Positions 3,884 through 64,000 of a stretch of 64,000 bases of DNA are shown piece by piece; position 1 is the stretch's first letter, and every line of letters begins with the position of its first letter. The notes under the pieces were generated by a model, which saw only the letters and a list, made by a program, of their open reading frames with translations, was not told the DNA's origin and made no database searches. This DNA comes from a virus, in IMG/VR virus record IMGVR_UViG_3300020020_000002, positions 1-64,000 of that record; one strand, written 5' to 3'. A program made the position numbers and the translations under genes.

Positions 3884-3942
3884 CGCCTGTCGTCTACCGC
3901 AACGGCTTGCCAGTGTCAAACCGCGCGACCGAGCGCGGTCTG
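3884..3942 (-). promoter_or_regulatory. promoter cassette P9 (leaderless-type) overlapping the fibre gene 3' end
   Basis: Minus strand: ACCGCGC-N6-GCGCGGT inverted repeat, TTGACA (3914-3919, overlaps fibre stop)-17 nt (GCAAGCCGTTGC)-TAGACG-7-ATG(3883). Confidence 0.5.
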
Positions 3943-15108: not shown

Positions 15109-17193
15109 TCATCGTGCTGGCGTTTTGGGTGTCAGTCGCTCGATTTGCGCACGGATCCGCGCTGCCTCCTCGGGCGTGATCGCTCGACCTTCGTGCATGC
15201 CGGTTGTCAAGATTTCCGTGAGTGCAGTGAGCCGTTGATCGGGGGCCATCGCTGCTGGCTTGGTCGCTGCAGTCTCAGGGACGCCGCCGCTCGTAGCGTT
15301 CTTTTGCATCTCCTCATACCACTTGATCGCCTTGGCTGGGACGCCCACGCGCTGCGGTGTGGTTTTGACTTCCTTCGCGGCCTCGATCGTATCACCGATG
15401 TTCTCCATGTAGTCGCGCTTGGCTGCCTCGTGCACGAGCGTCACCGTGTCGTAGATATCTTTCATCTGCTGCGGCGTCGCCTGCTCGCCGGATTGCGCTT
15501 TTTCCCACGCGAGCTGGATCTGATCGCCGAGGCCGAGGGTGTCGGCCGCTGCCTTGTATTCTCCGCTCAACACTGCGCTGTTGCGATCGTTGAGCTTGTT
15601 CATCTGGAAAACAAACGTGCGCTGCTGCTGCTTGTTTTTGATGTTCTCAAAGCTGTTGCCGTTTTTCGCGAGCATCTCATCGAGCGTTTTCTTGATGTCG
15701 TCGATGCCCTGCATTTGGCCGGATCCGAACAGCGCGACCGTGCTCGGTTGCTTGTAGTAGCCTTCGCGGATGCTGTGGATCGCCGAGATCTTTTCTGCGG
15801 GCTTGAGCGGCACGCTGGTTTCCAAGATCGACGACATCTCCTCCTCGGTCATGCCCTCGGGATTCTTGCCGCGGGCGATCACCGCTTTCTTCAGCGCGAG
15901 GTGCGCAGGCGAATCTTTCCGCGCTGCTTTTTCCATGATCGCCTTGCGCTGATCCTCGCTCATCGACGCGACCTCTCGCGCCGTGTGGCCCTGCTTCATG
16001 ATCGTCTCGTCTTCGAGCTTGCGCAGATCGGCCGAGGTATCTTTGACCGCGGTGACTTTTTTGTCGCCCGGCCGCAGCACTCCGGTCGTCAGGCCGTTGG
16101 TGCGCTCGACGATCGGTTCCATCCGTTTCGGCACCCGGCGCGCGTCCGCACCATCCGAGGCGTAGAAGTAGCCGTTGTCACCAAAGACCGATGGCGGCTT
16201 GACCGTGGGCGGGAGCGCGGCCGGTGCCCTTACCGGTGCAGGTGCGACCTGCGCGGCTGGGCGGGCCGCTGGTGTGGGTGCGACCGCGTTGGCGGGCACG
16301 GGTGGCAGTTCCTCGATGTCGCCTTGGCCCTGCTCTTCGACCGCAGGCGGTGTGACCTGCGCGAGCTGGGCGGCCTCTGCCACTTTCACGTAGGGGCTGG
16401 GATCGATCCGCTGCGCGAGCGGTTGCACGGGCCCGGTGAACTCTTCCGACCCGGGCTTGAGCGCGGCGAGTGTGCCGTTGGCGGCTGCCTCTTGGCCGAT
16501 CTGTGCGAGCGCCTGCTGGCCCTGCGGCGTCTGCGCTGCGGCGAGCGCGGGCTGGGCTGCGGCCGCTTCGGCCGTCGGCGCACCTTTCGGCACTGCAGGC
16601 TCGGGCGGCGGGTTGTAAAAAAGCGCGCTGTCTTGGTCGGTCGCGCTGGCCGGGGCGGCGGATGGTATTTCCGCGCCGATCTCGGGCGAGCTGGTGAGAT
16701 CCGTCGCGGCCGCGGGGAGTTCAGTGGCATCGGTGCCGCCTAGACCTCCGAGCACGTCGATCGGGTAGACCGGCTGCGAGCCACGCATCGCCTTGGCCGC
16801 CTGTGCGCGCCGATATTGAGCGTTGGTGATCGCCTCGTCGTATTTGAGCTGCCGCAGGAGCGGATCCACCGGCTTGTAGCTGATCGTGTCGTCAGCTCCG
16901 AAGGTGAAATCTTCCAGTGCCTTTCCGCCCTCACCAAGTTTGCCCATCTTGTATTCGTGGGCGGCTCGGGCCTGTGTCCGCGTGCGACCGGCCTGCTCGG
17001 CCTTGCTCAACAGCTCGGGTAATTTCGCGATCGTTTCGGCGGCCATGTTCATCGTGGCCGCGCTGCCTGCCAAGGTGGCTGCGCCACGCAGGTCCGGCAC
17101 GATCTCAGTGGGTGTGAACGTGCCCGTTTTCGGCGCGACGTAACGCACGCCGGGCAGGCTGTAAGGTTTGAGGCCGGATCCGAGTTCAGGCAT
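15109..17193 (-). CDS. internal virion protein candidate (694 aa, Ala/Pro/Gln-rich centre)
   Basis: Track ORF; position between a TM-anchored protein and the giant protein; low-complexity middle, helical charged C-terminal half. Confidence 0.45.
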   Translation of the reverse strand: MPELGSGLKPYSLPGVRYVAPKTGTFTPTEIVPDLRGAATLAGSAATMNMAAETIAKLPELLSKAEQAGRTRTQARAAHEYKMGKLGEGGKALEDFTFGADDTISYKPVDPLLRQLKYDEAITNAQYRRAQAAKAMRGSQPVYPIDVLGGLGGTDATELPAAATDLTSSPEIGAEIPSAAPASATDQDSALFYNPPPEPAVPKGAPTAEAAAAQPALAAAQTPQGQQALAQIGQEAAANGTLAALKPGSEEFTGPVQPLAQRIDPSPYVKVAEAAQLAQVTPPAVEEQGQGDIEELPPVPANAVAPTPAARPAAQVAPAPVRAPAALPPTVKPPSVFGDNGYFYASDGADARRVPKRMEPIVERTNGLTTGVLRPGDKKVTAVKDTSADLRKLEDETIMKQGHTAREVASMSEDQRKAIMEKAARKDSPAHLALKKAVIARGKNPEGMTEEEMSSILETSVPLKPAEKISAIHSIREGYYKQPSTVALFGSGQMQGIDDIKKTLDEMLAKNGNSFENIKNKQQQRTFVFQMNKLNDRNSAVLSGEYKAAADTLGLGDQIQLAWEKAQSGEQATPQQMKDIYDTVTLVHEAAKRDYMENIGDTIEAAKEVKTTPQRVGVPAKAIKWYEEMQKNATSGGVPETAATKPAAMAPDQRLTALTEILTTGMHEGRAITPEEAARIRAQIERLTPKTPAR

Positions 17194-18172
17194 AGTATTT
17201 TCCTACGGGTTGCCAAGTTGTTCCGCCGGGGTAAAGCGCCCGCGAGGGTCGGACAGCTCCGCTCACGCTGGTCGCGGCCGGTTGCCTTGTGGCACTCGTC
17301 GCGCCTGCGCCGTATTTCGAGCCATAGGCACCCGCACCCGCTTGCAGGGCGGTCGTAGCTGCGGAGGCGATCGCCGCGTTGCGTGCCGCATCTGCCTCGG
17401 CTTGCGCTTTCGCCATCGCGTTTTGCGAGGTCATCGCCGCGTTGGACTGCTCCATCGCCTGACCGACGCGTGCTTTCTCCGCTTCAAACTCGCGTTCGTA
17501 GTTCGCGGCGGCCCACGCATTTTTGTTCTCCACGTCGGCGATCGAGCTTTGCACGTAGTCCTGACCGGTCATGCCGAAGGTGCGGCGTGGGAAGATCTCC
17601 TCGGCCATCGAGAGTGACTTTTGCCGGTTGGTCCGGTTGCGGTCCTGAAAGCCCATGATGTCGAGCCCAAGGTGCCGGGCGACGTTGGCCTCGCCCGCGC
17701 TGCCCGGGGCCAGCACGCTGCCTGCGCCGGTCGTGCCGAGGCTGCCGAGCGTGTCGGCGATCCCGGCGCGCATGAACTCGCTCTGCAGTTGCGGCATCAG
17801 CTCGTGCTCGCCTGCCCAGTCCTTCGCGACTTCGGCCTCGAAGGCTTTCTCTGCGCCGACGATCGGCTTGTGCCGCTTGCGGAAGTCGGCATCGCTGCGC
17901 GCGTAGGCGTTGGCGTCTTCCTCGATCGCGCGTGCTTGGTTCGACTTGAAATTCCACGGCTGATAACCCGGCAGCTCCGGTGGCGTGAAGAGCGGTTGCC
18001 CCGCGATCGCCGCTTGGCTTTGCGCATTCGTCGCAGCCGCCTGTTTCTTGGCGTCCTTGGCCTGTTTGTTCGCCATGACTGCGCCACCGACGGCCGTGAC
18101 CACCGTGACGCCTGCCATGACCCATGTGAACCACCCACCGATCGTGAAAAAGCGTTTCCAGAAAATGCTCAT
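17186..18172 (-). CDS. internal virion/ejection protein candidate with N-terminal TM helix (328 aa)
   Basis: Track ORF MSIFWKRFFTIGGWFTWVMAGVTVVTAVGGAVMA...; hydrophobic N-terminus, Ala/Gln-rich tail; overlaps neighbours by 4-8 nt. Confidence 0.45.
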   Translation of the reverse strand: MSIFWKRFFTIGGWFTWVMAGVTVVTAVGGAVMANKQAKDAKKQAAATNAQSQAAIAGQPLFTPPELPGYQPWNFKSNQARAIEEDANAYARSDADFRKRHKPIVGAEKAFEAEVAKDWAGEHELMPQLQSEFMRAGIADTLGSLGTTGAGSVLAPGSAGEANVARHLGLDIMGFQDRNRTNRQKSLSMAEEIFPRRTFGMTGQDYVQSSIADVENKNAWAAANYEREFEAEKARVGQAMEQSNAAMTSQNAMAKAQAEADAARNAAIASAATTALQAGAGAYGSKYGAGATSATRQPAATSVSGAVRPSRALYPGGTTWQPVGKYYA

Positions 18173-18705
18173 GCGAGTGCTGGTTTGAGTTGAGTTTTGG
18201 AGGCGAGCAGAACCGCCTCGGTGGTGTTGCGATCGATCAGGCGATCTTCGAGGGTCGCCGTGTCACGACAGTCGTCAGGGTTGGCGTGGATGGTCTGCCA
18301 ACGGCAGGTTTGAAGGACGACGAACATCTTGAGCACGCCCGCACCACTGACGAAGACCTGCGGCGCGTGCAGGGTGGCCGGTTTGCCATTTTCGTCGATG
18401 TAGCGAATCGAGCCGGTGAGCATGATGTTGAAATGCTCGGTTTTGTGCCGCTTGCCGAGGATGAAGGTGCCGAAGGGCATCTCGATCTCGCGCAGGTAGA
18501 CGCCCGGTGCCCAGCGTTCGATCACCGGGCACTTGGCCTGCGGCTCCTTGACGAGTTGAGCGCCCAACGCGAGGGACGCGCCAACCTCGGCGTGTTCGAG
18601 CAACAGCTTGTCGATCGATTCCCGCTGCTTGCGGGTCAATTTTCTCAACTGCGTTTTAAACGCAGTTGATTTTTGTGGTGCCGTAAGTGGTTTGTTGCTG
18701 CTCAT
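18169..18705 (-). CDS. hypothetical protein (178 aa), possible small beta-barrel fold
   Basis: Track ORF 18169..18855 trimmed to ATG 18703-18705 (MSSNKPLTAPQK...), ATGA overlap with the tail-collar gene stop; a palindrome copy lies inside codons 13-20, so a start downstream of it cannot be excluded. Confidence 0.5.
   Translation of the reverse strand: MSSNKPLTAPQKSTAFKTQLRKLTRKQRESIDKLLLEHAEVGASLALGAQLVKEPQAKCPVIERWAPGVYLREIEMPFGTFILGKRHKTEHFNIMLTGSIRYIDENGKPATLHAPQVFVSGAGVLKMFVVLQTCRWQTIHANPDDCRDTATLEDRLIDRNTTEAVLLASKTQLKPALA
18645..18669 (+). promoter_or_regulatory. 25-nt perfect palindrome, copy 2
   Basis: Read directly; TTTCTCAACTGCGTTTTAAACGCAGTTGATTTTT; lies 33 nt below the tail-collar stop, inside the 5' end of ORF 18169..18705. 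Confidence 0.9.
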
Positions 18706-28636: not shown

Positions 28637-28648
28637 TTTGTATTGCAT

Positions 28649-28679
28649 AGCCCCTGACGGCTCGACTCCGTCAGGGGCT
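28649..28679 (-). terminator. strong hairpin immediately after the capsid stop
   Basis: AGCCCCTGACGG-7 nt-CCGTCAGGGGCT, 12-bp stem, 13 nt below stop 28692. Confidence 0.6.
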
Positions 28680-28691
28680 AGCGGCAAGCGA

Positions 28692-30080
28692 TTAGAGTGA
28701 ACCGGTGGCGCTCCAGTCACCGAAGTCGGTGATCGGAACGAGGCCGAAGTCGGTCTGCTTGCGAGCGTAGGCCACGGCGCAAACCGCGTGCGGACGCTCG
28801 GGCTTGTAAGCCCGGCTGAACTGGTAGTAGTGGCGACCAAAGTCCTGCCAGACGTTGCGGTCGTTGTCCGCAAGGTTGCGCCACATCAGCTCGCCGCTGA
28901 TGCCCTGCGCCGGGAACTTGAAGCTGCCCTCGCCCGTGTAGGTTTCGGGTGCCAGCTTGCGGAAGGATCCCTTGCCGATCACGAGCAGCACCTCGTATTT
29001 GGCGTGCACCCATGCGGCGCTCGGCCGACTGCCGACCGAGTTGTCGACCTCGACCGCGATCTCGGGCTCGATGTAGACCGGCTGGCCGCTCGCGGTGACC
29101 GTGTTGAAGCGCAGCGGCTGTGGATCCACACCAAACGCCATGCCGCGGTAGGGGCCTTCCCACAGATAGCGGATGAGTGTGTTCTTGCCGAGGTCGTAGC
29201 TGCCCGCGGCAATGTAGCGGTGATCGTCGCGCACCTCGGCGTCGTCACGCAGGAAGTCGACGGCTTCGTGGCTCGCGATGACCTTCATCACCGGCTCGCC
29301 CTGCTTGCCTTCCCACGGTTCGACGAGCAGCACCTCGCGCATCATTCTGCATAGATGCTGCATAAGTTTGATCGTCGGCATCGCGTTCGGCAGGCCGATG
29401 TTCGGGAACGGGGTGTCGATCGACTGCATGTTGCCCTCGAACATGTCGGAAAACGACTTGCCTGCCTGCACGACCATTTTGCAACCCGAGCGGTCGACGA
29501 GCGTGATGCGCACGTCGGCGTTGTTGAGCTGCACGAGCTGGCCGCGGAGTGATTGCTCAGCCGCGGAGTAGGCGGTCTTGAAGGCCGACCACATGCCCTT
29601 GATGCAGACCAGCGGCCCCATGCCGCGATTGGTCGCCAGCTCATAGCTGTATTCGGTGCTGCCGACCTCGGCGCTGGGACCGACGGTGCCGCAGACATTG
29701 CGATCGAGGGTGAACGTGGGCCGCACGAGCGACTGGTTGAGCACGGCGCGCTCCTGCACGACCACGCGCTGCACGTCGCTGATGCCTGCCTCCAACGTGC
29801 CGCCCTCAAGGACGTCGACGTAGGGGCTCTTCTGCACGACGGCGCGGATGACTTGGCCGCGGATGCGGTTCTCGTCCTTGGCCGCGAAGTCGCTGACGTC
29901 GGCCGGGTCGATCGAATACGCGCCGCGGTTGCTGTCGCCGCTGCCGTAGTAGGTGTAACCGTAGGCCGGTGTTGGTGTGCCGATATAGCACGGAGCCGCG
30001 AGCAGGATTGCCGCGGCCAGAATGGTTTTTTGTTTCAAGATTGGATGCTTTGTAACGCGGATCCGATGCCGGGGATCCAT
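28692..30080 (-). CDS. major capsid protein candidate (462 aa; N-terminus and start uncertain)
   Basis: Position after portal/scaffold; own sigma70-like promoter with ~100-nt leader; two strong hairpins right after the stop; size fits HK97-type capsids. No family recognised by eye. N-terminus KQKTILAAAILLAAPC looks like a signal peptide; in-frame TTG at 30036-30038 is an alternative start. Confidence 0.5.
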   Translation of the reverse strand: MDPRHRIRVTKHPILKQKTILAAAILLAAPCYIGTPTPAYGYTYYGSGDSNRGAYSIDPADVSDFAAKDENRIRGQVIRAVVQKSPYVDVLEGGTLEAGISDVQRVVVQERAVLNQSLVRPTFTLDRNVCGTVGPSAEVGSTEYSYELATNRGMGPLVCIKGMWSAFKTAYSAAEQSLRGQLVQLNNADVRITLVDRSGCKMVVQAGKSFSDMFEGNMQSIDTPFPNIGLPNAMPTIKLMQHLCRMMREVLLVEPWEGKQGEPVMKVIASHEAVDFLRDDAEVRDDHRYIAAGSYDLGKNTLIRYLWEGPYRGMAFGVDPQPLRFNTVTASGQPVYIEPEIAVEVDNSVGSRPSAAWVHAKYEVLLVIGKGSFRKLAPETYTGEGSFKFPAQGISGELMWRNLADNDRNVWQDFGRHYYQFSRAYKPERPHAVCAVAYARKQTDFGLVPITDFGDWSATGSL

Positions 30081-30180: not shown

Positions 30181-30210
30181 GGTATAGAAGCGTTTCCTAG
30201 GAGTGGTCAA
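30181..30210 (-). promoter_or_regulatory. sigma70-like promoter for the capsid gene
   Basis: Minus strand TTGACC (30205-30210)-18 nt-TATACC (30181-30186), directly after terminator-oriented palindrome copy 3; about 100-nt leader to ATG 30080. Confidence 0.55.
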
Positions 30211-30222
30211 CGACCAAAAAAA

Positions 30223-30247
30223 TCAACTGCGTTTTAAACGCAGTTGA
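30223..30247 (-). terminator. 25-nt perfect palindrome, copy 3 (only copy with the T-run on the coding strand)
   Basis: Minus strand reads GAAATTCTCAACTGCGTTTAAAACGCAGTTGATTTTTTTGG, i.e. hairpin + T7, immediately upstream of the capsid promoter. Confidence 0.7.
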
Positions 30248-30359
30248 GAATTTCCGCTCGACGTCGCAGGATTTACGAATAACAGTGTCCTCATTAACGC
30301 CCGGCAGCGCGACTATGCTGCCGCGCTAGGTGCAGTCTATAGGCGCACCGCAGAGAGTT

Positions 30360-30398
30360 GAACGGCCCGGGTTTTTGCAAGCCCGGGCCGTTCTTTTT
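30360..30398 (+). terminator. canonical intrinsic terminator oriented on the plus strand (no plus-strand gene evident)
   Basis: GAACGGCCCGGG-10 nt-CCCGGGCCGTTC followed by TTTTT on the plus strand. Confidence 0.6.
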
Positions 30399-30491
30399 CC
30401 ACCGCTGGCAACCGAGATTAGGTGCCCACCCCGAGCGGATCACGGCGGGAGCACCGACTAGGCACATCGCTCCCCGCCCGAGGTGGACATT

Positions 30492-30626
30492 TCATTTGCG
30501 CTTTCGATGCGTGCCTTTGATCGTCCCTGCGTTTTGGCTCGCATGGAAGACCTGTTTCCCTTTTTTCGCGCCGTAAGTTTTCGTCATCGCTTTCTGGATC
30601 TTTTTGCCTTTGGGCGTGAGTGGCAT
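30492..30626 (-). CDS. small basic protein (44 aa)
   Basis: Track ORF trimmed to ATG 30624-30626 (MPLTPKGKKIQKAMTKTYGAKKGKQVFHASQNAGTIKGTHRKRK); strong SD GAGGAGGTG 7 nt upstream. Confidence 0.65.
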   Translation of the reverse strand: MPLTPKGKKIQKAMTKTYGAKKGKQVFHASQNAGTIKGTHRKRK

Positions 30627-33153: not shown

Positions 33154-33606
33154 TTAGAGCTTGAGGTTGTCGGCCGTCGGCTCGATGCGCGGCGAGTCGG
33201 GGTTGTAACTCTCGGGGTATGGGTTCGCGCCGATGCCTGTCTCGTCCTTGATGCGCTTGAGGTCCATACCTAACCACATGACGCCTTCCTGCAGCTTCAT
33301 GATGGCGGCGCTGCGCTCGGGTGTGTTCACCATCGCGCGCAAGGTTTGGATGATTTGATCGATGTTGACCCGCGCTTGCTTGATGGCGCGAATCTCGTTC
33401 TCGATCGGGTTGGTTTCGGGGCGTGGTAGCTCGTTGGATACTTCGGTTTCTTCGCTCATGGTGTTGGTTGGTTGATTGGCGCACTCTTCGGATTGGAGGA
33501 ACGTGCCGGGTCTTTGGTCGTAGTCGGACGAGCCGCACGCGTAGACGGTTCGTGGGCTATTATGATCGATCTCTGCGGCTCCGCAGCTTGGGCAGGTGTC
33601 GGGCAT
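33154..33606 (-). CDS. Zn-ribbon + helical-hairpin protein (150 aa); C-terminal half resembles the N4 gp49/Sf6 gp66 (Acb2-like) family
   Basis: N-terminal CPSCG...YACG; C-terminal RSAAIMKLQEGVMWLGMDLKRI...NPYPESYNPDSPRIEPTADNLKL recalls the T.LEEA.MW motif of that family (from memory, unverified); internal ATG at 33457-33459 is an alternative start. Confidence 0.4.
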   Translation of the reverse strand: MPDTCPSCGAAEIDHNSPRTVYACGSSDYDQRPGTFLQSEECANQPTNTMSEETEVSNELPRPETNPIENEIRAIKQARVNIDQIIQTLRAMVNTPERSAAIMKLQEGVMWLGMDLKRIKDETGIGANPYPESYNPDSPRIEPTADNLKL

Positions 33607-37191: not shown

Positions 37192-37204
37192 GCCTAACGA
37201 ATTC

Positions 37205-37229
37205 TCAACTGCGTTTTAAACGCAGTTGA
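37205..37229 (+). promoter_or_regulatory. 25-nt perfect palindrome, copy 4
   Basis: Read directly; starts 6 nt after the portal stop codon (37235-37237), followed by a promoter-like module. Confidence 0.9.
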
Positions 37230-37234
37230 GTTTT

Positions 37235-39709
37235 TTACACCTTCGTCGCGGTCTGTCCCAAGTCGATCTTCGCCTCTTCGAGCCCTTGCGCTTTGCTGCC
37301 TTCCGCGGCCTTGGCGAGGATGCGCATGTTCTCCTGCTGGATCTGCAGCGCGTCCTTGTTCACTTGGTGGCCGAGCTTCGCTTCCTCGATCGACAGCTCG
37401 CGATCTTTTTGGTCGGCCTTCTTCGCTTCGAGGCCGAGGTAGCCTGCTTCGGTTTGCTGCTCGGGTGGCAGGCCGGGGGATCCCGGGGCAACCGGCTGCG
37501 CACCGGCACCCGCACCGGGCTGGCCCCCGGCTGCCATTTGGGCTTGAGCATCGGCCTGCGCTTTCTGCAGCGCCTGCTCGGCCTTGGTCACAATTTGGAA
37601 CCATCCGCGGATCACGTCCTCTTCCTGCTTCTTCTGCTCGGGCAGGAGCATCGGATCCATCTGGATGTGCATGTCGTAGTGCTGCAGGCAGAGCTTCGCG
37701 CCACCGATCAGCTCGGGCTGCGGGTTCTGCGCGATCGCCTGCACCATGCCGTCGAGGTTAGGTGCCAGTGCCTGCCGGTGGATCGCGTGGTTGTCGAATC
37801 CAACCACGGGCATCGGGTTGCCATCGAGCATCTCGGATAGCTCGATCGTCTGCTGGCGGATCGCGGCGTCGCGCACGTTGGTGTCCTCGTCGGGAATGAC
37901 CAGCTCGGTTGCCCGGGCCTCGCCGAGCACGATGCGCGCTTCCATCTGCGTCGCCTTGTTCTGATCGATGCGCGGGTTGATCTTGTTCGCGGCGATGAAT
38001 TGCAGCGTCGCTTGGTCCTTGGCTGCGCCCTCGTTCTCGTTGCTCGCGCCGGACGGCACCACGGCCAGCATGGCGATCTCCTCGATCGTCAGGCCGCTGT
38101 CCATCAGCTCGACCACCGCTTGCACTGCGGCTTCGTCGGCGATCGACGTCTCCATGATCGGCTCGACGCCCGGGGTTTTGCCGAAGGCTTTCTTGAGGAG
38201 TTTCCACGCCTGCTGGATCACGACCACGATCTTCGCGCTCATCTTGCGCTTTTTCTCCTCGTAGGCGCGCTTGCCCTCGCGCAGCACCAACGGGCTGAAC
38301 ATGCCGCGGACCATCATGTCGACTAGCTCTTTCGCTTGGTTAGTGAACCGGGTCAGCACGCCCTGCCTAACTGCGATGTCCCGCTCGGCTTTCTGCGCGG
38401 CCTCGATCTTCGTCTTGCTGCTGCCGCTTTGATCGACGTTGGGTGGAATGAACGCACCTGCGATCGATTCCGCGATGCCGACGAGCTTGTTGTCGAGGCC
38501 CTCGCTCGCTTCCCAGTTGATCTGAAAGTTTTCGACCAGCACGTCGGTGCCGGTGGGTGCGACCATGAACGGGTAGCGAAGCTGTAACTGCACCGCCGTC
38601 GGATCGTCACTCTTGAGCACGGGGAACCCGGCGAAGTTAATCTTGTCGGCCGTGAAGTTGCGGCCGCGCTCGATCGCCACATGCAGGTTGGTTAGGAGTC
38701 GGCCGAGGCCCTTGGATCCATAGAACTTTCGGTTGCCCGCCTGCATGGTGAAAAGCGTCATGCACTCAGGCATCGAGCCGTGCACGTTCTTCGCCTGCCG
38801 GACCTCGGTGCCGTCGTCCTCGCTCGTCGTCCAGAGATCGATCTCGCCTGTGTAGTCGCGCACCAGCACGTGAAAGCAGCGCACCTGCCGAGTTTGGTTC
38901 TCGGTCGCATAGCTGTAACCTAGTGGGCTCAGCTCGCGGATCGCGTCCTGCTCCTCCAGCGGCGTCTGCTCGGTGTTGTTGAACCCACCGGCCGTGTTGG
39001 CCGTCTTGATGCACCCGGCGTAGTTGTAGCCCGCGCGCTCGGCGATCATGCGATCGCGGAACAGGTCCATGAACTCGTGCATGAGGAAGGGCTGGCGGAA
39101 GGCGCAGACCTGCACCTTGCTCGCGTGCTGGCCGGTGCCCTCGGGCAGGAACACTTCGTCGTAGCGCCACATGCGCGGCCGCCAGTCTTCGCCCAGTTTC
39201 GTGGCGACCGCGTTCCCATGCGTGACGACCTCTTGGGCAAGGCCCGACAGGAAGTCTTTCCACTCGACCCATGCCCGAATGGTTTTGGTGCAAACCTCGT
39301 TGAACTTGCGGCTCTTCTTGACGCCTTCGGGGTGCCCGGGCGGAAGCGCCTTCTGGCAGAGGAGGTCGGCCACTTCGAGTGGCTCGGTGAGCTGGGGTTT
39401 CACCCGATCGATGATCGAGGCGAGGAAATTGGTGGAGAAATTGTTGCGCCAGCCTTGCCCGGTGCGCGTCAGATCTCGCGCGAAAAATGGTGGATCACCA
39501 TTGTAGGCCTTGCCGATGAACGCTGCCGTGCGCAGGCGTCCATCGATCGCGCGATCTCGCAAGCTCTTGGCGATGCCGTAGGCCTGCTTGCAGTTGTTGA
39601 TCGCTCTACTGGTCGGCTTGCCCGTTGCCGGACTTATGTTGGGCGGATTGAGCTGCTGATCTCCGGTTGGTTCCTTGTTGCTGTCCTGTGCTGGATAGAT
39701 CGCGCTCAT
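37235..39709 (-). CDS. portal protein candidate (824 aa)
   Basis: Size, position upstream of scaffold and capsid, central FYGSKGLGRLL region and long Gln/Ala/Glu-rich helical C-terminal tail as in podoviral connectors; no HMM run. Confidence 0.6.
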   Translation of the reverse strand: MSAIYPAQDSNKEPTGDQQLNPPNISPATGKPTSRAINNCKQAYGIAKSLRDRAIDGRLRTAAFIGKAYNGDPPFFARDLTRTGQGWRNNFSTNFLASIIDRVKPQLTEPLEVADLLCQKALPPGHPEGVKKSRKFNEVCTKTIRAWVEWKDFLSGLAQEVVTHGNAVATKLGEDWRPRMWRYDEVFLPEGTGQHASKVQVCAFRQPFLMHEFMDLFRDRMIAERAGYNYAGCIKTANTAGGFNNTEQTPLEEQDAIRELSPLGYSYATENQTRQVRCFHVLVRDYTGEIDLWTTSEDDGTEVRQAKNVHGSMPECMTLFTMQAGNRKFYGSKGLGRLLTNLHVAIERGRNFTADKINFAGFPVLKSDDPTAVQLQLRYPFMVAPTGTDVLVENFQINWEASEGLDNKLVGIAESIAGAFIPPNVDQSGSSKTKIEAAQKAERDIAVRQGVLTRFTNQAKELVDMMVRGMFSPLVLREGKRAYEEKKRKMSAKIVVVIQQAWKLLKKAFGKTPGVEPIMETSIADEAAVQAVVELMDSGLTIEEIAMLAVVPSGASNENEGAAKDQATLQFIAANKINPRIDQNKATQMEARIVLGEARATELVIPDEDTNVRDAAIRQQTIELSEMLDGNPMPVVGFDNHAIHRQALAPNLDGMVQAIAQNPQPELIGGAKLCLQHYDMHIQMDPMLLPEQKKQEEDVIRGWFQIVTKAEQALQKAQADAQAQMAAGGQPGAGAGAQPVAPGSPGLPPEQQTEAGYLGLEAKKADQKDRELSIEEAKLGHQVNKDALQIQQENMRILAKAAEGSKAQGLEEAKIDLGQTATKV

Positions 39710-43967: not shown

Positions 43968-44062
43968 GGGCGGCGGAAGATGGTGAAGGTGCAGGTGATG
44001 ATGATCGCGACCGAGCCGAGGCAGGCGGCGATGAAGAGGTAGAGGCCGTAGTCGTCGTTCAT
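43964..44062 (-). CDS. small membrane peptide (32 aa)
   Basis: ATG 44060-44062 in ATGA overlap; MNDDYGLYLFIAACLGSVAIIITCTFTIFRRP. Confidence 0.45.
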   Translation of the reverse strand: MNDDYGLYLFIAACLGSVAIIITCTFTIFRRP

Positions 44063-44388
44063 TGGATGTAGAGTGTGCCGTTCTTGGCGATGACGCGCTT
44101 GCCAGACGCGTTGCTGATGACTTTGGCGAGGAAGGCCCCGAACTCGATCTCGGCGCGGCGCTGGACCGATTTGGCGGCTTGGCTGCGGCCGTGCCGGTAG
44201 TCGGTGACCTTCACGTTGGCGAGGCCGAGGCGGTAGTTGACTTGGCCCTCGGTGTAGCCGGTTTCGCTGGCGATGTGCCGGGCGGCGAATCCGAGCATCC
44301 CGAGGAGGACGCAGCGGAGATCTTGGCGGTTGTCGAGGAAGTCGATTCCCCGGGTGGTCTGGCGCTTGTAGGCGGTAGGTGTGTGCAT
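44059..44388 (-). CDS. HTH DNA-binding protein (109 aa)
   Basis: Track ORF; GFAARHIASETGYTEGQVNYRL resembles a LuxR/sigma region-4 type helix-turn-helix. Confidence 0.5.
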   Translation of the reverse strand: MHTPTAYKRQTTRGIDFLDNRQDLRCVLLGMLGFAARHIASETGYTEGQVNYRLGLANVKVTDYRHGRSQAAKSVQRRAEIEFGAFLAKVISNASGKRVIAKNGTLYIQ

Positions 44389-44903: not shown

Positions 44904-45110
44904 TTAGTTCCTGCCGGGCTTTGGGTTATGCGGCGGGTTGCTGTGTTTTACCGTCAATTCGCCCCCGGTTTCGCGGAAGGCCTGCTCGATCGCGACCTTG
45001 ATGACCCGGTAGCACAGGGCCTCGATGTGCGTCGCCTCGCCGGGCGGGCTCTGGATGGTGACGCCGAGGCCGCTGGGCTCCTGCTGGATGGTGATGAGGA
45101 CTTCGATCAT
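44904..45110 (-). CDS. hypothetical protein (68 aa), tandem paralog A
   Basis: Track ORF MIEVLITIQQEPSGLGVTIQSPPGEATHIEALCYRVIKVAIEQAF... Confidence 0.6.
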   Translation of the reverse strand: MIEVLITIQQEPSGLGVTIQSPPGEATHIEALCYRVIKVAIEQAFRETGGELTVKHSNPPHNPKPGRN

Positions 45111-45321: not shown

Positions 45322-45410
45322 TTCATGTCTCGGTTGATGGCGTAGCCGAAGGTGGCGAGGATCAGCATCAGGATCCACAGCACCAGTTCGCAGTCGCATT
45401 GGGCGATCAT
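45318..45410 (-). CDS. small membrane peptide (30 aa)
   Basis: Hand translation MIAQCDCELVLWILMLILATFGYAINRDMK; ATGA overlaps at both ends link the XRE gene to paralog B. Confidence 0.4.
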   Translation of the reverse strand: MIAQCDCELVLWILMLILATFGYAINRDMK

Positions 45411-45679
45411 TTGTTGGAGGTGTGGCCTGCGGCAGCGTGGCGGCGCACCATGGCGTCGCTACGGGCCTCGCTACGGCGCTTGCGCAGCCGGTCCATGGCC
45501 GTCTCGCTCTTGGTCGATTCGAGCAGCGGGATGATCCCATACTGCTCAATGCGGCTCGGTGGTTTCCCGTTCTCCCACGCCCACAGTTTGCGGGGTGAGA
45601 TGTCGAGGATCTTGGCGCACTCGGCTTGTGAGAGGCCGAGCTTCTCGCGCAGGGTTTTGATTTCTTTGGCGATGTTCAT
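45407..45679 (-). CDS. XRE-family HTH transcriptional regulator (90 aa)
   Basis: Trimmed to ATG 45677-45679; MNIAKEIKTLREKLGLSQAECAKILDISPRKLWAWENGK is a classic Cro/CI-type HTH. Confidence 0.8.
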   Translation of the reverse strand: MNIAKEIKTLREKLGLSQAECAKILDISPRKLWAWENGKPPSRIEQYGIIPLLESTKSETAMDRLRKRRSEARSDAMVRRHAAAGHTSNK

Positions 45680-46459: not shown

Positions 46460-46771
46460 TTACTTGGCGACGCTGGCGGTGGGCCTGTCGACGAGGATAA
46501 CCCGGCCGTGAAAGTCGCGAGCCATCGAGGCGATGTAGCAGGTGTTGCCCGCGGCGACGTCTTTGAGCCAGATCGCCTTGGAGAGCGCGTAGACCGTGCC
46601 GTTCGGCTGGCGCTGGAGGGCTCCGTTCCAGATCCGGCCGAACTTATCGCTGAACGTGTAGTCGACGTTGTTGCGGGATTTGAAGCTGACGCGCAGCACG
46701 GTGTGCCCGGCGTCGGCGAGGGCCTTGGCGATCAGTGCTTTTGTTTCGGCGATGTTGGCGGTGTTGCTCAT
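46460..46771 (-). CDS. hypothetical protein (103 aa), MSN-type gene behind promoter cassette
   Basis: Trimmed to ATG 46769-46771 (MSNTANIAETKALIAKALADAGH...). Confidence 0.7.
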   Translation of the reverse strand: MSNTANIAETKALIAKALADAGHTVLRVSFKSRNNVDYTFSDKFGRIWNGALQRQPNGTVYALSKAIWLKDVAAGNTCYIASMARDFHGRVILVDRPTASVAK

Positions 46772-46830
46772 GTCGGTGAATGTGGTGCAAGCGGTTGCGG
46801 TATGCAAGATCTATTTCGCAAAAGTTGCGA
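46772..46830 (-). promoter_or_regulatory. promoter cassette P3 (leaderless-type)
   Basis: Minus strand: TCGCAACTTTTGCGA-8-TTGCAT-17 nt (GCAACCGCTTGC)-CACATT-7-ATGAGCAAC. Confidence 0.6.
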
Positions 46831-47046: not shown

Positions 47047-47378
47047 TGCGCGACCTCCCGCAGGATGGGGTGGAACCCTTTGGAGGTGACGGTGGTCACC
47101 TCGCCGAACTTGAGCGGGCTGCTGATCTCCCAGCGTTCCCACACGCACTCGCCCTTCTCGTTCTCGTCGACGCCGACGTAGAGGCGGCTCTTGAGCAGCC
47201 GGGCGGGGCGGGTGCCGCGGCCGGGGCCTTCGCCGAGCCACAGGGTGTGGGTCGCGCCGCGCTCGGCCGACCACGCGCAGGGTGCGCCTTCGCGGACCTC
47301 GTGGCGCTTGCCCCACGAGTTTTCGCGGACGATCGTGACGTTGTGCTTATCCATGGCGGTGGTGATGCGGTTGCTCAT
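47043..47378 (-). CDS. hypothetical protein (111 aa), MSN-type gene behind promoter cassette
   Basis: Trimmed to ATG 47376-47378 (MSNRITTAMDKHNVTIVRENSWGK...). Confidence 0.7.
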   Translation of the reverse strand: MSNRITTAMDKHNVTIVRENSWGKRHEVREGAPCAWSAERGATHTLWLGEGPGRGTRPARLLKSRLYVGVDENEKGECVWERWEISSPLKFGEVTTVTSKGFHPILREVAQ

Positions 47379-47436
47379 GTCGGGAAGGTGGCGCAAGCGG
47401 TTGCAGTGGTCAAACACTATTTCGCACTATTTGCGA
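47379..47436 (-). promoter_or_regulatory. promoter cassette P4 (leaderless-type)
   Basis: Minus strand: TCGCAAATAGTGCGA-8-TTGACC-17 nt (GCAACCGCTTGC)-CACCTT-6-ATGAGCAAC. Confidence 0.6.
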
Positions 47437-47707: not shown

Positions 47708-47920
47708 TTAGGCAGTCATCGCGAACTTGCGGATCGCTTCGGTCTGCAGGCCGCTTTTGCGGCGGATCCGGCGGTAAATCTCGGAGTCGCGTTTGGTGGC
47801 GAAGAGCTGGCGCTCGCCCGCAGGTCCGACGACCTCCCAGCGCAGTGGCTTGTCGTGCCAGTCGCCCGAGAGGATGCCGTTGGGCAGTTTATTGATGATG
47901 ACGGTCGGTGTGTTGCTCAT
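47708..47920 (-). CDS. hypothetical protein (70 aa), MSN-type; paralog of 44648..44857
   Basis: Trimmed to ATG 47918-47920 (MSNTPTVIINKLPNGILSGDWHDKPLRWEVVGPAGERQLFATKRD...). Confidence 0.7.
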   Translation of the reverse strand: MSNTPTVIINKLPNGILSGDWHDKPLRWEVVGPAGERQLFATKRDSEIYRRIRRKSGLQTEAIRKFAMTA

Positions 47921-47979
47921 ACGGTGAAGGTGGCGCAAGCGGTTGCAGTGGTCAAATACTTTCTCGCATTATTTGCGAG
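47921..47979 (-). promoter_or_regulatory. promoter cassette P5 (leaderless-type)
   Basis: Minus strand: CTCGCAAATAATGCGAG-7-TTGACC-17 nt (GCAACCGCTTGC)-CACCTT-6-ATGAGCAAC; the stop codon of the upstream gene lies in the loop of the inverted repeat. Confidence 0.6.
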
Positions 47980-49417: not shown

Positions 49418-50041
49418 TTAGATTTTCCCGGCGATCGCCTTGATGGCGTCCTTGAATCCGCCTTCGCCCTTCAGCTCGGCGGTCACCTTGCGGCTCGCCT
49501 CGTCCCAGCGGATCGCGCGCCATTCGGTGATGATGCGGGCCTTCTTGAAGCGGTCGGTAGGCTTGTGGCGGAAGGTGGACACGTAGAGGTGTAGGTTCCC
49601 GCTTTGGTAGTGGCGCTCGGTGCCGCTCTTGCGGCCCGTGCGGCTGTCACTGACCTTGGTGAACTTCTCGACCGGAGCGGCCGCGCCGCCGTTGTTGCAG
49701 ATCAGGCGAACGGTGGTCGTCGTGACGACTTCGTTCGGGGCCGGGACCACCGCCAGCTTGCCCGTGCCGTGGCAGCGGGAGCAGCAGTGTGAGTCGGGAT
49801 CGGAGCGGCGAACCGAGCGGGAGAAGTCGCGGCTGAATGCGCCCAGTCCGTCGCAGTCTTCGCATTCGGTCACTGGCGCGTCCACCACTTCGATCTCGAC
49901 CTCACAGGACCACGAGTGGCGGAAGTCTTCGGCTTTGGTGCCGGGGCGAAGGGCGAGGGCCTCGGCGGCTGTCTTGGCCTCGAAGGCCCGGCCGTTGAAG
50001 TAGAGGCCGGTGCTGGTCGCTTTTGCGTAGGTGTTGCTCAT
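49418..50041 (-). CDS. protein with DnaJ-type CxxCxGxG zinc-finger pair (207 aa), MSN-type
   Basis: Trimmed to ATG 50039-50041 (MSNTYAKATSTGLYFNG...); CEDCDGLG ... CSRCHGTG; promoter cassette upstream. Confidence 0.65.
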   Translation of the reverse strand: MSNTYAKATSTGLYFNGRAFEAKTAAEALALRPGTKAEDFRHSWSCEVEIEVVDAPVTECEDCDGLGAFSRDFSRSVRRSDPDSHCCSRCHGTGKLAVVPAPNEVVTTTTVRLICNNGGAAAPVEKFTKVSDSRTGRKSGTERHYQSGNLHLYVSTFRHKPTDRFKKARIITEWRAIRWDEASRKVTAELKGEGGFKDAIKAIAGKI

Positions 50042-50099
50042 GGGGTGACCTTGGCGCAACCGCTTGCCCCTGTCAACACCCATGTCGCATTTTCTGCGA
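50042..50099 (-). promoter_or_regulatory. promoter cassette P6 (leaderless-type)
   Basis: Minus strand: TCGCAGAAAATGCGA-8-TTGACA-17 nt (GCAAGCGGTTGC)-CAAGGT-6-ATGAGCAAC. Confidence 0.6.
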
Positions 50100-52251: not shown

Positions 52252-53629
52252 CAGGTGGCGCGGTTGCGTCGAGTGGTTTGTCTGGCACCTCGGCGATCGG
52301 CTCACCGCCGGGTTGATAGTCTTCAATGCATAGGTGGCCCAGCCATCGAGCAGTGTAGTCGACGATCGAGTTGGCGACCCTGATGTCGGGGTTGGTGGTG
52401 ATCCCGCGGGGCTCGAACTTATGCCACGCGAACATGCGCGCGATCTCCCTGACCGGCACGCCGTATTGCAGGAGCATGCTTAGGCTGCGCGCCCACGCGT
52501 CGGCGAAACCCTGCAGGGTTGAGCCCTGCTTCTGGATCACGATGAAGACCTCGCCCGGGCGGCTTGGATCCACGTCGTCGCCCTCGCCGTAAAAGCCCAC
52601 GGTGATGTAGCCCTTCTGCCCGGCGATATCGAACTTGTGGGTGACCGCGTTGCGTGTGTCGGGCAGGCGGTGCCGTTGCTCGATCGGCGCAGGCCCGTCC
52701 GCTTGCACGGGCATCGTCTCGGTGAGTTGCTGGGCGAGGCCCTTGGTGAAGACCTGCCCACAGTTGTGGCATTGCACGACCCTGTTGAACTCGTTCCAAA
52801 AGATCGGGCCGACCTCGATGTCGTGGATCGGGTAGCCACAGCACGGCGTTACCCCGGTGCGCTTGATTGCGTTCGGGTTGGCGGCTTCGGCGGCGGTGCG
52901 GGCGGGGCGCTGTTGGCGCAGGTCGGCTTCAACGTAGTTTTTAATCGCGCTATCGAGCCCGTCATCGTCGCGCACCATGTTGGTCAGGTTTTTGATCGTG
53001 CACGCGTTGATGCGATGATCGAAGTCGCGGCGCGTGCATGGATCGCCCAAGTAGCGCCCGCCGATCTCGCCCTGCGGGCCTACCGGGCCTCGGGCGTCGT
53101 TCCAGCCGTCCCAGTCCATCACCTCGAAGCCGAGCAGCGTGGCCCACACCTCGGGCAGCAGGAGCACGTCCGGCGTGAGCTTGTCGACGTTGATCCGCGA
53201 GCCACGGCGCAGCTTTAACTTTTTGACCTCTTCGCGCATTTCACCGAATGCGTCGCAGATGTCCTCGACGCACTCGGCCAGCGGGATCGAATTCCCACCG
53301 CGCTCTTTCTCCCACCCGACCCGGTCGAGCGCCGCGCCGATGCGCTTGGCGATGTGACCCAGCACGATCGCTGCGCCGTGGTCGTCGAACTGCAGCTCGC
53401 CTAGGTCGAAGGCATGCGTGACGTCGATCTGCTTGTTCATCGCGCTGGTGGGCGTGCGGCGGTTGATGACCGGCACGATCGCGGTGTAGCCGGTGACGCG
53501 GACGCGGGTGCCGGGCGAGATCTCAGGATCTCTCGCGGTCAGCACGGTGGCGATCGGATCTTGAAAGCGTGGCGGTCCTACTTCGAGGTTGAGTGGGTCG
53601 GGTGGTGTTTGCATCGGTTGAGTGTTCAT
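52241..53629 (-). CDS. protein with stand-alone NrdJ C-terminal (TSCPD-like) domain, Zn-ribbon and novel N-terminal region (462 aa)
   Basis: C-terminal THKFDIAGQKGYITVGFYGEGDD...PGEVFIVIQKQGSTLQGFADAWARSLSMLLQYGVPVREIARMFAWHKFEPRGITTNPDIRVANSIVDYTARWLG parallels the C-terminal segment of long class II (B12) ribonucleotide reductases; no catalytic barrel upstream. Confidence 0.6.
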   Translation of the reverse strand: MNTQPMQTPPDPLNLEVGPPRFQDPIATVLTARDPEISPGTRVRVTGYTAIVPVINRRTPTSAMNKQIDVTHAFDLGELQFDDHGAAIVLGHIAKRIGAALDRVGWEKERGGNSIPLAECVEDICDAFGEMREEVKKLKLRRGSRINVDKLTPDVLLLPEVWATLLGFEVMDWDGWNDARGPVGPQGEIGGRYLGDPCTRRDFDHRINACTIKNLTNMVRDDDGLDSAIKNYVEADLRQQRPARTAAEAANPNAIKRTGVTPCCGYPIHDIEVGPIFWNEFNRVVQCHNCGQVFTKGLAQQLTETMPVQADGPAPIEQRHRLPDTRNAVTHKFDIAGQKGYITVGFYGEGDDVDPSRPGEVFIVIQKQGSTLQGFADAWARSLSMLLQYGVPVREIARMFAWHKFEPRGITTNPDIRVANSIVDYTARWLGHLCIEDYQPGGEPIAEVPDKPLDATAPPDAR

Positions 53630-54336
53630 AAGCTTCCTGCCTCCATTTCATCGATCGATTTGTCGCCGCTAGTGAGCGGCAGCGGGCCGACGGTCTTGAC
53701 GTGGCCGTTGCTGCCGGTGGAGATGTTGTTGGTGATGGCCTGAAAGATCAGTGTCTGCATCCGGTTCTCAGTGAGCTTGGCCTCGTCCTCCCCCTTCTCG
53801 TTGATCCCGATGCCTAGTAGCTTGCGGGCCTGCTCGGTGACTTTCACGATCGTCTCGGCCGCCTTGGCCTGCTCGGCGAATGCGTTCTCATCGAGCACCT
53901 CGACCTCCATCCCGAATTGCTTCACCACCCGCTTGACGTAGAGCGGTCCCTGCGCGCCCTCAACCGTGTTGGTGGCGATCGGCAGGAACTCGCGGATGAT
54001 GCTTTCGAGCCTAGGCAGCGCGATGGCGAGATAGGCATCGCGCTGATCCGCGATCGACTCCTTGCGATAGGTGACGGCCCCGCGGATGAACCCGGCGATC
54101 GTTGTGTGCGAGGGCACGATCTGGAGGTTGAATTTCTTGGCCAGCGCCTGCGCGATATCGCGCTGGTGCCAGCCCTTGGTGACTAGGTCAAAGCAGAACT
54201 CTTGAAACTCGACGCGGCGCTCGTCCTCGCCAGTGCCGTTCGGTGCGCCGGGCAGGTGCTCCTTTTTTTGCACGACTGCCTTGCCTTGGTTGTTACCTTT
54301 ATTCGGCGGCTTTTTGCTGTCCTTCTTTTTGGCCAT
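53626..54336 (-). CDS. HTH DNA-binding protein, possible small terminase subunit (236 aa)
   Basis: Track ORF; Lys-rich N-terminus, HTH-like GWHQRDIAQALAKKFNLQIVPSHTTIAGFI, helical centre, acidic C-terminus; about 4.4 kb from terL, so the assignment is weak. Confidence 0.3.
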   Translation of the reverse strand: MAKKKDSKKPPNKGNNQGKAVVQKKEHLPGAPNGTGEDERRVEFQEFCFDLVTKGWHQRDIAQALAKKFNLQIVPSHTTIAGFIRGAVTYRKESIADQRDAYLAIALPRLESIIREFLPIATNTVEGAQGPLYVKRVVKQFGMEVEVLDENAFAEQAKAAETIVKVTEQARKLLGIGINEKGEDEAKLTENRMQTLIFQAITNNISTGSNGHVKTVGPLPLTSGDKSIDEMEAGSL

Positions 54337-56269: not shown

Positions 56270-56305
56270 AGATGGATAGCTAGTGCAAGCGGTTGCTTGT
56301 GTCAA
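56270..56305 (-). promoter_or_regulatory. promoter cassette P7 (leaderless-type)
   Basis: Minus strand: TTGACA-17 nt (GCAACCGCTTGC)-TAGCTA-7-ATG(56269). Confidence 0.55.
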
Positions 56306-56676
56306 TGCGCCGCCTGACGTCGTGACTTGCGTGGTGGTGTCACTTGGGGTGGCGGTGATTGGCGTGGTTTGTCGCGGTGAATGCGTCGCTTTACAGGTCG
56401 GCGCAGGTAGGCCTCCAGCTCGGGCGTGAACTTGATGCGCAGGATCCGGCCGGTCGAGCCATACTCGGCGTAGAATGCCGGGCAAGACGCCGAGTAGATG
56501 CGGCGGTGGAGCGTGTTGGCCCGCAGATCGCATCGCTTGGCGACGTCCTGCGGCGTGAGCATGTGGCCCGGCGCGTCCTTGGGCGGCAGGCATACCCAGC
56601 CGTGGGTTTGCAGGATGTGGATGGCGAGGCGGATTACTTCGCCCTCGTCGGTGTGGACCGGCGGCTTGGTGCTCAT
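56302..56676 (-). CDS. HTH (excisionase/MerR-like) DNA-binding protein (124 aa)
   Basis: Trimmed to ATG 56674-56676; MLTPQDVAKRCDLRANTLHRRIY resembles an HTH_17-type motif; ATGA overlap. Confidence 0.45.
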   Translation of the reverse strand: MSTKPPVHTDEGEVIRLAIHILQTHGWVCLPPKDAPGHMLTPQDVAKRCDLRANTLHRRIYSASCPAFYAEYGSTGRILRIKFTPELEAYLRRPVKRRIHRDKPRQSPPPQVTPPRKSRRQAAH

Positions 56677-58293: not shown

Positions 58294-58318
58294 GGGGCGG
58301 GGGATTGAACCCCGCCCC
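58294..58318 (-). terminator. GC-rich hairpin with tRNA T-loop-like loop (intercistronic)
   Basis: Minus strand GGGGCGGGG-TTCAATC-CCCCGCCCC; followed by AACCTCTTTCTCACACC then ATG 58276; same layout as the hairpin at 1655. Confidence 0.45.
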
Positions 58319-62259: not shown

Positions 62260-62284
62260 TCAACTGCGTTTAAAACGCAGTTGA
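62260..62284 (+). promoter_or_regulatory. 25-nt perfect palindrome, copy 6
   Basis: Read directly; 18 nt upstream of the sliding-clamp ATG (62241). Confidence 0.9.
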
Positions 62285-62288
62285 TTTT

Positions 62289-63881: not shown

Positions 63882-64000
63882 GTTGGTAGAAAAAAATACC
63901 CGCCCCCGGTGGTCGAAAGCTTGCACACGATCGACCGCCCGAGGACGGGCGTTATGGCAACAATTGGTATACGCGGTGCAAGGCGCGCCCGGCCTCGTGC

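Follow-up and report, generated by a model that had tools for sequence, protein, structure and literature searches.

The palindrome family and its setting

The window analysed here is a stretch of 64,000 nucleotides, positions 1 to 64,000 of IMG/VR virus record IMGVR_UViG_3300020020_000002, and all window scans cover these 64 kb of the 74-kb genome of a phage known from metagenomes only. The window has a G+C content of 62% and, judged by the G+C content at third codon positions (GC3), essentially all of its genes are located on the minus strand. A 25-nt perfect palindrome, TCAACTGCGTTT-W-AAACGCAGTTGA, is present at six sites dispersed over the window and is the subject of this report. The copies, cited below by the first position of the palindrome, are located as follows, each with its adjoining homopolymer run:

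2362 to 2392, palindrome and T6 on the plus strand, 13 nt past the stop codon of an HNH-like gene and abutting an early-type promoter module
18645 to 18674, palindrome and T5 on the plus strand, 32 nt past the stop codon of the tail-collar gene
30216 to 30247 (copy 30223), minus strand, T7 after the stem on the coding strand, the sole copy of this kind, 5 nt upstream of a TTGACC −35 box
37204 to 37236 (copy 37205), palindrome with 13-bp arms and T6 on the plus strand, 4-5 nt past the portal stop codon
44875 to 44905, palindrome and T6 on the plus strand, 4 nt past the stop codon of the open reading frame (ORF) 44904-45110 and 17 nt before the ATG at 44857
62260 to 62290, palindrome and T6 on the plus strand, 4 nt past the stop codon of ORF 62289-62507 and 18 nt before the sliding-clamp ATG at 62241

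An exact-match search for TCAACTGCGTTTWAAACGCAGTTGA returned six matches, starting at 2362, 18645, 30223, 37205, 44875 and 62260, in agreement with a preliminary description of the sequence which had reported six copies with identical arms and a variable centre. With up to three mismatches allowed, the window contained no match beyond these six, and the 25-mer was absent (0 occurrences) from 100 dinucleotide-preserving shuffles of the window. Lone half-sites and degenerate inner palindromes of the 25-mer were searched for in the window and none were found, so the family is all-or-none. At the centre, A and T are the only bases seen. The palindrome family is a real and non-random feature of this genome.

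A single homopolymer run adjoins each of the six copies, on one side only. On the plus strand these runs are T6 at 2387, T5 at 18670, T6 at 44900, T6 at 62285 and, after one intervening G, T6 at 37231 for copy 37205; copy 30223 has A7 at 30216, on the opposite side from the other five. With the genes on the minus strand, five T-runs are antisense and that of copy 30223 alone is on the coding strand. GC3 and mapping of the runs thus bear out the polarity claimed in the preliminary description, to which copy 2362 adds a weaker, partial U-rich tail, GTCTTTTC, on the coding strand. On the side opposite the run, the flank is rich in A and T and resembles GAWTTTC, the motif reported before for five of the six copies, only loosely. 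Two copies match it exactly, 44875 and, in mirror image, 30223; the remaining four have AATTTTC, GAATTC, GAGATT or GAAAAGAC. As a 40-nt unit, the copies with their flanks are 75-95% similar. The RNA of the element is predicted to fold into a hairpin of about −15 kcal/mol with a stem of 11-12 bp and a 3-nt loop, and stability z-scores against shuffled sequences range from −4.2 to −5.6.

The gaps between the upstream stop codon and the palindrome are 4, 4, 5, 13, 32 and 244 nt. Three copies begin 4-5 nt past a TAA, so that the stop codon merges into the A-run on the coding strand; copy 62260, for instance, reads TAA-AAAA-palindrome on the minus strand. Copy 18645 probably lies inside codons 12-20 of a short-tail-fibre-like ORF that starts at 18705 in an ATGA overlap. 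Copy 30223 is located within a non-coding region of 410 nt, where the coding strand reads hairpin, T7, five bases and then the following promoter:

30181 to 30210, minus strand, sigma-70-like promoter TTGACC-N18-TATACC upstream of the putative capsid gene

The boundary genes named in the preliminary description were re-examined. The sliding-clamp and tail-collar labels were confirmed, whereas support for the HNH label of the gene before copy 2362 is weak. The portal label had been doubted because of the replication genes nearby in related phages. This doubt was dismissed: an AlphaFold model of the 824-aa gene product, built from 22 homologues (pLDDT 71.5), matched the podovirus portals of SU10, cyanopodophages, N4 and T7 in Foldseek with E values of 1e-11 to 1e-8. 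The capsid label of 28692-30080 was not confirmed by hidden Markov models, and this gene is 82% conserved in the relative L003 (see below). Beyond copy 37205 a promoter-like module, TTGCCA-GCTA-GCAACGGCTTGC-CTTACAT, is followed by a 91-aa gene.

Terminator-like structures and strand polarity

Both strands of the window were scanned for stems of at least seven pairs followed by a T-rich tail. Apart from the palindrome family, a single strong hairpin-plus-T-run structure was found on either strand:

30360 to 30398 (hairpin 30360-30393), plus strand, 15-bp stem followed by T5, in the conserved region upstream of the capsid gene

The copies have the anatomy of an intrinsic terminator, a stable hairpin with an adjoining U-tract, as the run of T5-7 begins 0-1 nt past the stem. 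A position downstream of the transcription unit to be ended applies to copy 30223 and partly to copy 2362, while the other four copies are antisense to all genes. Terminator-like structures on the coding strand are accordingly limited to copy 30223 (full) and copy 2362 (partial), and both are followed by promoter-like sequence.

Homopolymer runs of at least five nucleotides on the plus strand of the whole window comprise 81 T-runs and 14 A-runs, from which it follows that the coding strand almost never bears U-runs. This avoidance fits the A>T composition of the coding strand and possibly also reflects avoidance of accidental terminators. The presence of sigma-70-like promoters suggests that the phage relies on the host RNA polymerase.

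Three further perfect hairpins with arms of 9-13 bp and 7-nt loops, at 28648-28680, 58294-58318 and 1655-1679, bear no U-run on the coding strand. One of them is located directly past the putative capsid gene, the position of the T-phi terminator in T7. Programmed frameshifting or readthrough at TAAAAAA plus hairpin was considered and rejected, the spacer being 0 nt and no extended ORFs being seen.

Occurrence outside the window

The 25-mer had no exact match (0) in 185,579 species-representative bacterial and archaeal genomes (GTDB), a set outside which the true host may lie, and none in IMG/VR. A host repetitive extragenic palindrome (REP), the possibility by which the preliminary description would have been refuted, or a common mobile element is therefore unsupported. 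An IMG/VR scan for CTTCGATNNNATCGAAG gave single matches at chance level.

Among GenBank phages, megablast and tblastn detected no relatives, nor did single-protein scans of IMG/VR; a profile scan of IMG/VR retrieved a distant outgroup only, which has no such palindromes. One short locus was obtained from JGI metagenomes with a portal profile, and a GTDB scan yielded one 4-kb contig of a Verrucomicrobiota metagenome-assembled genome, too weak a match to assign a host. Independent Logan short-read assemblies of the same phage (L001, L002 and L021) break exactly at copies 62260, 44875 and 30223. The repeat fragments k-mer assemblies, and genomes of this kind may be hidden in metagenomes.

Private palindromes in related phages

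A total of 68 portal homologues were found in metagenomes. The comparison set consisted of nine metagenomic relatives with 39-87% portal identity, each covering at most about 22 kb around the portal gene, and one outgroup. Each of the nine relatives bears a repeated perfect palindrome of its own, and all of these differ from the window palindrome with its six sites:

L003, TGTCACCTCGTAA-T-TTACGAGGTGACA, 2 sites in 13 kb
L006, CTTCG(T/C)-N5-ACGAAG, 5 sites
L007, CTCCGCGC-S-GCGCGGAG, 6-10 sites
L008, ACTTCGATT-N-AATCGAAGT, 11 sites in 22 kb
L009, CTACACTTTCGAG-N4-CTCGAAAGTGTAG, 4 sites
L010, CATCTTATGCC-G-GGCATAAGATG, 1 site
L011, CTTCGTCA-N-TGACGAAG, 6 sites
L012, CTTCGAT-N3-ATCGAAG, 8 sites
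L013, CTTCGATA-N-TATCGAAG, 6 sites

No recurrent palindrome was found in the outgroup (28-35% portal identity).

Sites at gene junctions account for 30 of 48 in the relatives, where just 3-9% of the sequence is intergenic. Most junction sites start 0-11 nt past the upstream stop codon, and the next start codon is 2 to 228 nt away. Several positions are orthologous: a palindrome is present past the portal gene in eight genomes and ahead of the clamp gene in the window and L011. In L003, a private palindrome occupies both of the corresponding window positions, past the portal gene and ahead of the conserved capsid promoter, the L003 counterpart of which is TTGCCT-N17-TACACC.

The palindromes share a common register, C-Y-N-C-G N7 C-G-N-R-G, occupying positions −8 to −4 from the centre and their mirror images; in L009 it is displaced by about one base. 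The half-sites measure 5 bp each, at a fixed spacing of 7 nt and 12 bp from centre to centre. The core is CTTCG in five genomes, CTGCG in the window, CCTCG in L003, CTCCG in L007 and CTTAT in L010. The variants CTTCG, CTGCG, CCTCG and CTCCG differ by single steps, and each variant is fixed across both arms and all copies of its genome. The palindromes have thus diverged in concert throughout the clade. That the arm sequence is selected and that these are not ordinary independent terminators, as had been proposed from the window, is strongly supported by the uniform private palindromes of the relatives, in one register and often at orthologous junctions.

Other properties vary between the genomes. 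T-runs beside the palindrome are confined to the window phage and its closest relatives and are absent from the distant ones; in L003 an A-run and a T-run flank the palindrome symmetrically, one on each side. The centre is exclusively G or C in L007, and the relatives also contain decayed copies. L006 and L011 keep the half-sites CTTCG and CGAAG but have lost pairing at the inner positions, and the stems of L006 have just 5-6 bp with C-A or A-A mismatches. Loop or centre asymmetries of consistent orientation occur in L006, L011 and L012, and the central base is missing from one copy in L008.

Copies of the CTTCGAT type also occur within genes, and all translated ones are in the reading frame for F-D-x-I-E (Phe-Asp-x-Ile-Glu):

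L008, 18399, 20111 and 22047
L012, 18956 and 9197
L013, 5142 and 13848

One of these is orthologous between L008 and L012 and lies in a variable linker of a 447-aa protein family, where L009 has NFEQSE.

A promoter motif of the clade was present within 100 nt of 9 of 55 palindromes, and obligate pairing of the palindrome with the clade promoter module was rejected on this count.

Comparison with known repeats

Among known repeats, the nearest match is a dyad repeat found in Cluster O mycobacteriophages such as Corndog, a 17-bp sequence TGTTCGG-NNN-CCGAACA with 34 copies, the function of which is unknown and for which a dimeric binder is suspected (PMC4351075). As in the present clade, an invariant inverted repeat surrounds a free, A/T-rich centre, the sequence is absent from the host, and the tens of copies per genome of about 70 kb are mostly intergenic or near gene ends, some being located in genes (PMC4351075). 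The palindromes of L012 and L013 have nearly the same format. The window element is longer (25 bp), has few copies, and is fused to a T-run and anchored to stop codons. While five close relatives share one sequence in Cluster O, the sequence here differs from genome to genome, with register and positions kept. The window palindrome is a phage genome-wide dyad-symmetric repeat of the Cluster O type, a descriptive class without known mechanism. New with respect to the known dyad repeats are the clade-wide concerted divergence in a fixed register and the putative use of a terminator cassette in two orientations.

Dispersed sites of a different kind are the stoperators of Cluster A mycobacteriophages (L5, Bxb1). 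These near-identical 13-bp sites in short intergenic regions are asymmetric, oriented with respect to transcription and bound by one reader protein, the immunity repressor of these temperate phages, and the motif co-evolves between subclusters. In contrast, the window sites are perfect 25-bp palindromes with asymmetry in their flanks only, no repressor or integrase was seen in the window and the phage looks lytic. With intrinsic terminators the copies share a hairpin containing G+C pairs followed by T5-7, and copy 30223 occupies the expected place at a module end before a promoter; the copies are however identical, five of six face the non-coding strand and the homologous elements of distant relatives have no T-run.

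REP and REPIN sequences are short, genome-specific extragenic palindromes with many copies, often just 3' of stop codons. The window element differs from these in its absence from the 185,579 genomes, the lack of a RAYT gene in the window and a copy number of six instead of hundreds. It has no GTAG/CGTC tag; GTAG in L007 and L009 and CGTC in L011 are possibly due to chance. In T4-type phages, promoter-plus-stem-loop units (PeSL, promoter-early stem-loop) reportedly flank small ORFs in hyperplastic regions and mediate their shuffling. Repeated stem-loop cassettes between phage genes and near promoters are common to both systems, but few of the palindromes here have the promoter motif nearby and no shuffling was seen.

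Dyad repeats are known in few phage groups, with unknown function, and the ten genomes of this clade form a natural experiment: with the same layout, partly the same positions and different sequences, correlation of palindrome cores with protein families should reveal the putative reader, a factor recognising the sequence. The window phage in addition offers a simple test of one part as both sense terminator and antisense insulator.

Possible function of the palindromes

The explanation we prefer, tentatively and with rather less than even confidence, is that the window element is a private version of a punctuation palindrome of the clade, serving as a terminator cassette in this phage and read in its sequence by a co-evolving factor. 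This clade of uncultivated podoviruses sets palindromic 'punctuation' at gene junctions, typically right after the stop codon. In the window phage the element has become long, rare and fused to a T-run, and it would be the source of all canonical terminators. The fusion of the palindrome with a one-sided T5-7 run points to an intrinsic-terminator cassette for the host RNA polymerase, and the effect of this cassette would be set by the orientation of the copy. Copy 30223 would stop coding-strand transcription where the replication/portal block meets the capsid promoter, copy 2362 would, more weakly, end the structural block ahead of the early-type promoter, and the other four copies would let sense transcription pass and stop only backward polymerases, whether divergent or spuriously antisense. 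The suppression of antisense transcription, one of the roles suggested in the preliminary description, fits the anatomy of the window. It cannot be what the clade conserves, since the distant relatives have no T-runs, and termination would be a lineage-specific add-on.

One sequence per genome, arms that change together and positions that are kept suggest that the sequence itself, and not just the hairpin, is read by a co-evolving, sequence-specific reader of two-fold symmetry. Structure alone cannot hold 6 to 11 dispersed copies identical, and independent terminators would not have a register in common across 39-87% portal identity. The likeliest candidates would be a dimeric DNA-binding protein of the phage itself or a protein that recognises the hairpin in the transcript. 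The same principle of co-evolution is seen in phage promoters, which track their polymerase, and in stoperators, which track their repressor.

Several results weigh against this proposal. Distant relatives have palindromes without T-runs, and the entire 12-nt arm is replaced between phages at 83-87% portal identity, which is fast for protein-DNA co-evolution. Five of the six T-runs face antisense, and given the genome-wide bias in T-runs this 5:1 orientation alone is weak evidence for an antisense function. Furthermore, Pfam and PHROG scans of about 70 window ORFs identified no reader protein. The only clear helix-turn-helix (HTH) proteins in the window are an Xre-type protein at 45407-45679, which could not be linked to the palindrome, and an O-like replication initiator at 63126-63926; of three HTH proteins named in the preliminary description, the first of these was confirmed and those at 44059-44388 and 56302-56676 were not. 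ORF 53626-54336 (minus strand) encodes a clade-conserved protein of 236 aa with a lysine-rich N-terminus and an HTH-like segment (KGWHQRDIAQALAKKF..PSHTTIAGFIRG). Its PHROG family is labelled 'RNase E', although a regulatory or small-terminase-like DNA-binding protein appears the better description. As a reader it is not supported: L008 and L011 have the same core but differ in the putative recognition helix of this protein, which does not covary simply with the core. The 91-aa gene past copy 37205 was discarded as well, since it is also present in the outgroup and does not resemble a DNA-binding protein. The scans further gave a DnaC-like loader and the clamp, and no RAYT/HUH protein, transposase, ParB, RNase III or RNA polymerase. 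When the PDB was searched by sequence with the 563-, 627- and 499-aa proteins, nothing useful came up.

The evidence is divided as to whether such a reader would act on DNA or RNA, and each possibility can be taken further into an explanation of its own. The palindrome may be purely a duplex-DNA operator or roadblock for a dimeric phage regulator, in the manner of stoperators or the Cluster O dyad, with hairpin and T-run incidental. The geometry is operator-like, with 5-bp half-sites, fixed 7-nt spacing and a free central base, and favours action on DNA all the more as the half-sites are kept in L006 and L011 where inner pairing is lost; copies within genes are tolerated, and the 34 invariant dyads of Cluster O provide a precedent (PMC4351075). 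The anchor, however, is the upstream stop codon and not a set distance from a promoter, a perfect symmetry of 25-39 bp with a homopolymer run at each copy exceeds the needs of a dimer, and neither the missing central base in L008 nor the orientation-consistent asymmetries of several genomes would be expected. The binding site for a dimeric protein that had been suggested before is still plausible, the search for its cognate protein having been negative, but as the full account of the element we regard it as unlikely.

The same irregularities, together with the stop-codon anchoring, favour action on RNA, in the form of a REP-like hairpin in 3' untranslated regions that stabilises or processes polycistronic mRNA or couples the end of translation to expression downstream, and that might be read by a hairpin-specific RNA-binding protein or nuclease. 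At sites 0-11 nt past stop codons the terminating ribosome must melt the 5' arm. REPs of E. coli occupy similar positions relative to stop codons. The hairpin is moreover stable, with A-rich single-stranded flanks on the coding strand. The short, mismatched L006 stems fit this poorly, cleavage at in-gene copies would harm the phage's own mRNA, and the candidates for an RNA-binding protein or nuclease were not borne out, the one with the PHROG label 'RNase E' looking like an HTH protein. Structure alone also leaves the sequence identity unexplained. We consider this reading unlikely, on a par with the pure operator. RNase III sites in a polycistronic minus-strand RNA, likewise suggested in the preliminary description, are highly improbable. 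Intercistronic hairpins would suit a podovirus with T7-like internal-core order (weak T7 gp14 match, portal fold), but RNase III needs about two helical turns (~20 bp) of double-stranded RNA, against stems of 11-12 bp in the window and 5-13 bp in the relatives, and the RNase III sites of T7 are not known to be identical in sequence.

Without any reader, the copies could be young duplicates, a selfish palindrome resembling REPINs or miniature inverted-repeat transposable elements, or hairpins homogenised by gene conversion or palindrome self-correction. Descent with flipping predicts what is seen in the window, perfect copies with similar flanks and an A/T centre (G/C in L007); a target duplication could account for the A-rich sequence on either side, decayed copies exist in relatives, and deletions in Cluster O have been inferred to result from recombination between dyad copies (PMC4351075). 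We nevertheless hold this to be quite improbable. The window ORFs scanned gave no hit to a transposase, RAYT or HUH protein, neither the representative bacterial genomes nor IMG/VR contain the 25-mer, and gene conversion would have very little to work on in units of 17 bp; positional orthology and the C-Y-N-C-G register persist across 39-87% portal identity while the sequence is replaced. Barely credible is a hairpin promoter for a phage RNA polymerase as in N4, whose flipped copy would drive a small plus-strand RNA ending at 30360-30398. In its fold the portal is similar to those of N4 and SU10, five copies are oriented towards downstream genes and the only other strong plus-strand terminator is located 113 nt beyond the flipped copy. 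The scans, however, revealed no RNA polymerase, the 2768-aa virion protein carrying GNAT, PBECR5 and DUF7178 instead; sigma-70-like promoters are present, the distance from palindrome to start codon varies from 2 to 228 nt and Rfam gave no match.

A further possibility, which we rate as distinctly unlikely, is an unrecognised type of reader for hairpin or palindrome marks, such as an RNA-processing, termination/antitermination or roadblock factor, with a specificity that is re-set in each lineage and followed by its sites. If so, the palindromes would represent a natural, rapidly re-programmable means to insulate cistrons or adjust their dosage in a genome coded on a single strand. Returning to the tentatively preferred terminator cassette with its private reader, this would, if true, be a compact orthogonal part for synthetic biology.

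Other features of the window

The early-type promoter module past copy 2362 belongs to a family of five:

2290 to 2356, minus strand, promoter-like module with a TCGCA-N5-TGCGA dyad, TTGACG, the spacer dyad GCAACGGCTTGG and the start ATGAGCAAC
46764 to 46830, minus strand, same family
47370 to 47436, minus strand, same family
47912 to 47978, minus strand, same family
50033 to 50099, minus strand, same family

The general layout is TCGCA-N5-TGCGA, TTGAC(C), a 12-bp spacer dyad GCAA(G/C)CG(G/C)TTGC and, about 20 nt on, ATGAGCA(A/C); starts in this family may be leaderless or nearly so. Unlike the private palindromes, the spacer dyad is common to most relatives (L006, L007, L008, L010, L012 and L013).

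The non-coding region of about 400 nt upstream of the capsid gene (window 30250-30492, minus strand; L003 10905-11230) is 74% identical to its counterpart in L003. It contains a stem GGCGGGGAG...CTCCCGCC, the loop of which is unlike between the two phages, and may constitute a small RNA or a structured leader; nothing in the window, this region included, matched Rfam or was called as a tRNA.

The virion-type polyvalent protein of 2768 aa with GNAT, PBECR5 nuclease and DUF7178 domains is encoded at 6798-15104 (minus strand) and follows an ORF of 694 aa and a weakly T7 gp14-like ORF (15109-17193 and 17186-18172). This trio looks like T7-style ejection proteins bearing effector domains. A collagen-repeat protein of 961 aa (3916-6801, minus strand), whose Gly-X-Y repeats form the largest tandem families of the window, adjoins a group-1 glycosyltransferase ORF (2759-4567, minus strand); as the two ORFs overlap, one of the starts is miscalled. 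ORF 33154-33606 (minus strand) has a weak match to the Acb2/Tad1 hairpin domain (E = 8e-4, below the Pfam cut-off), and weak or precomputed matches to anti-defence sponge folds, including Tad5 in a relative, were also obtained at L012 15782-16273 and L007 19785-20375.

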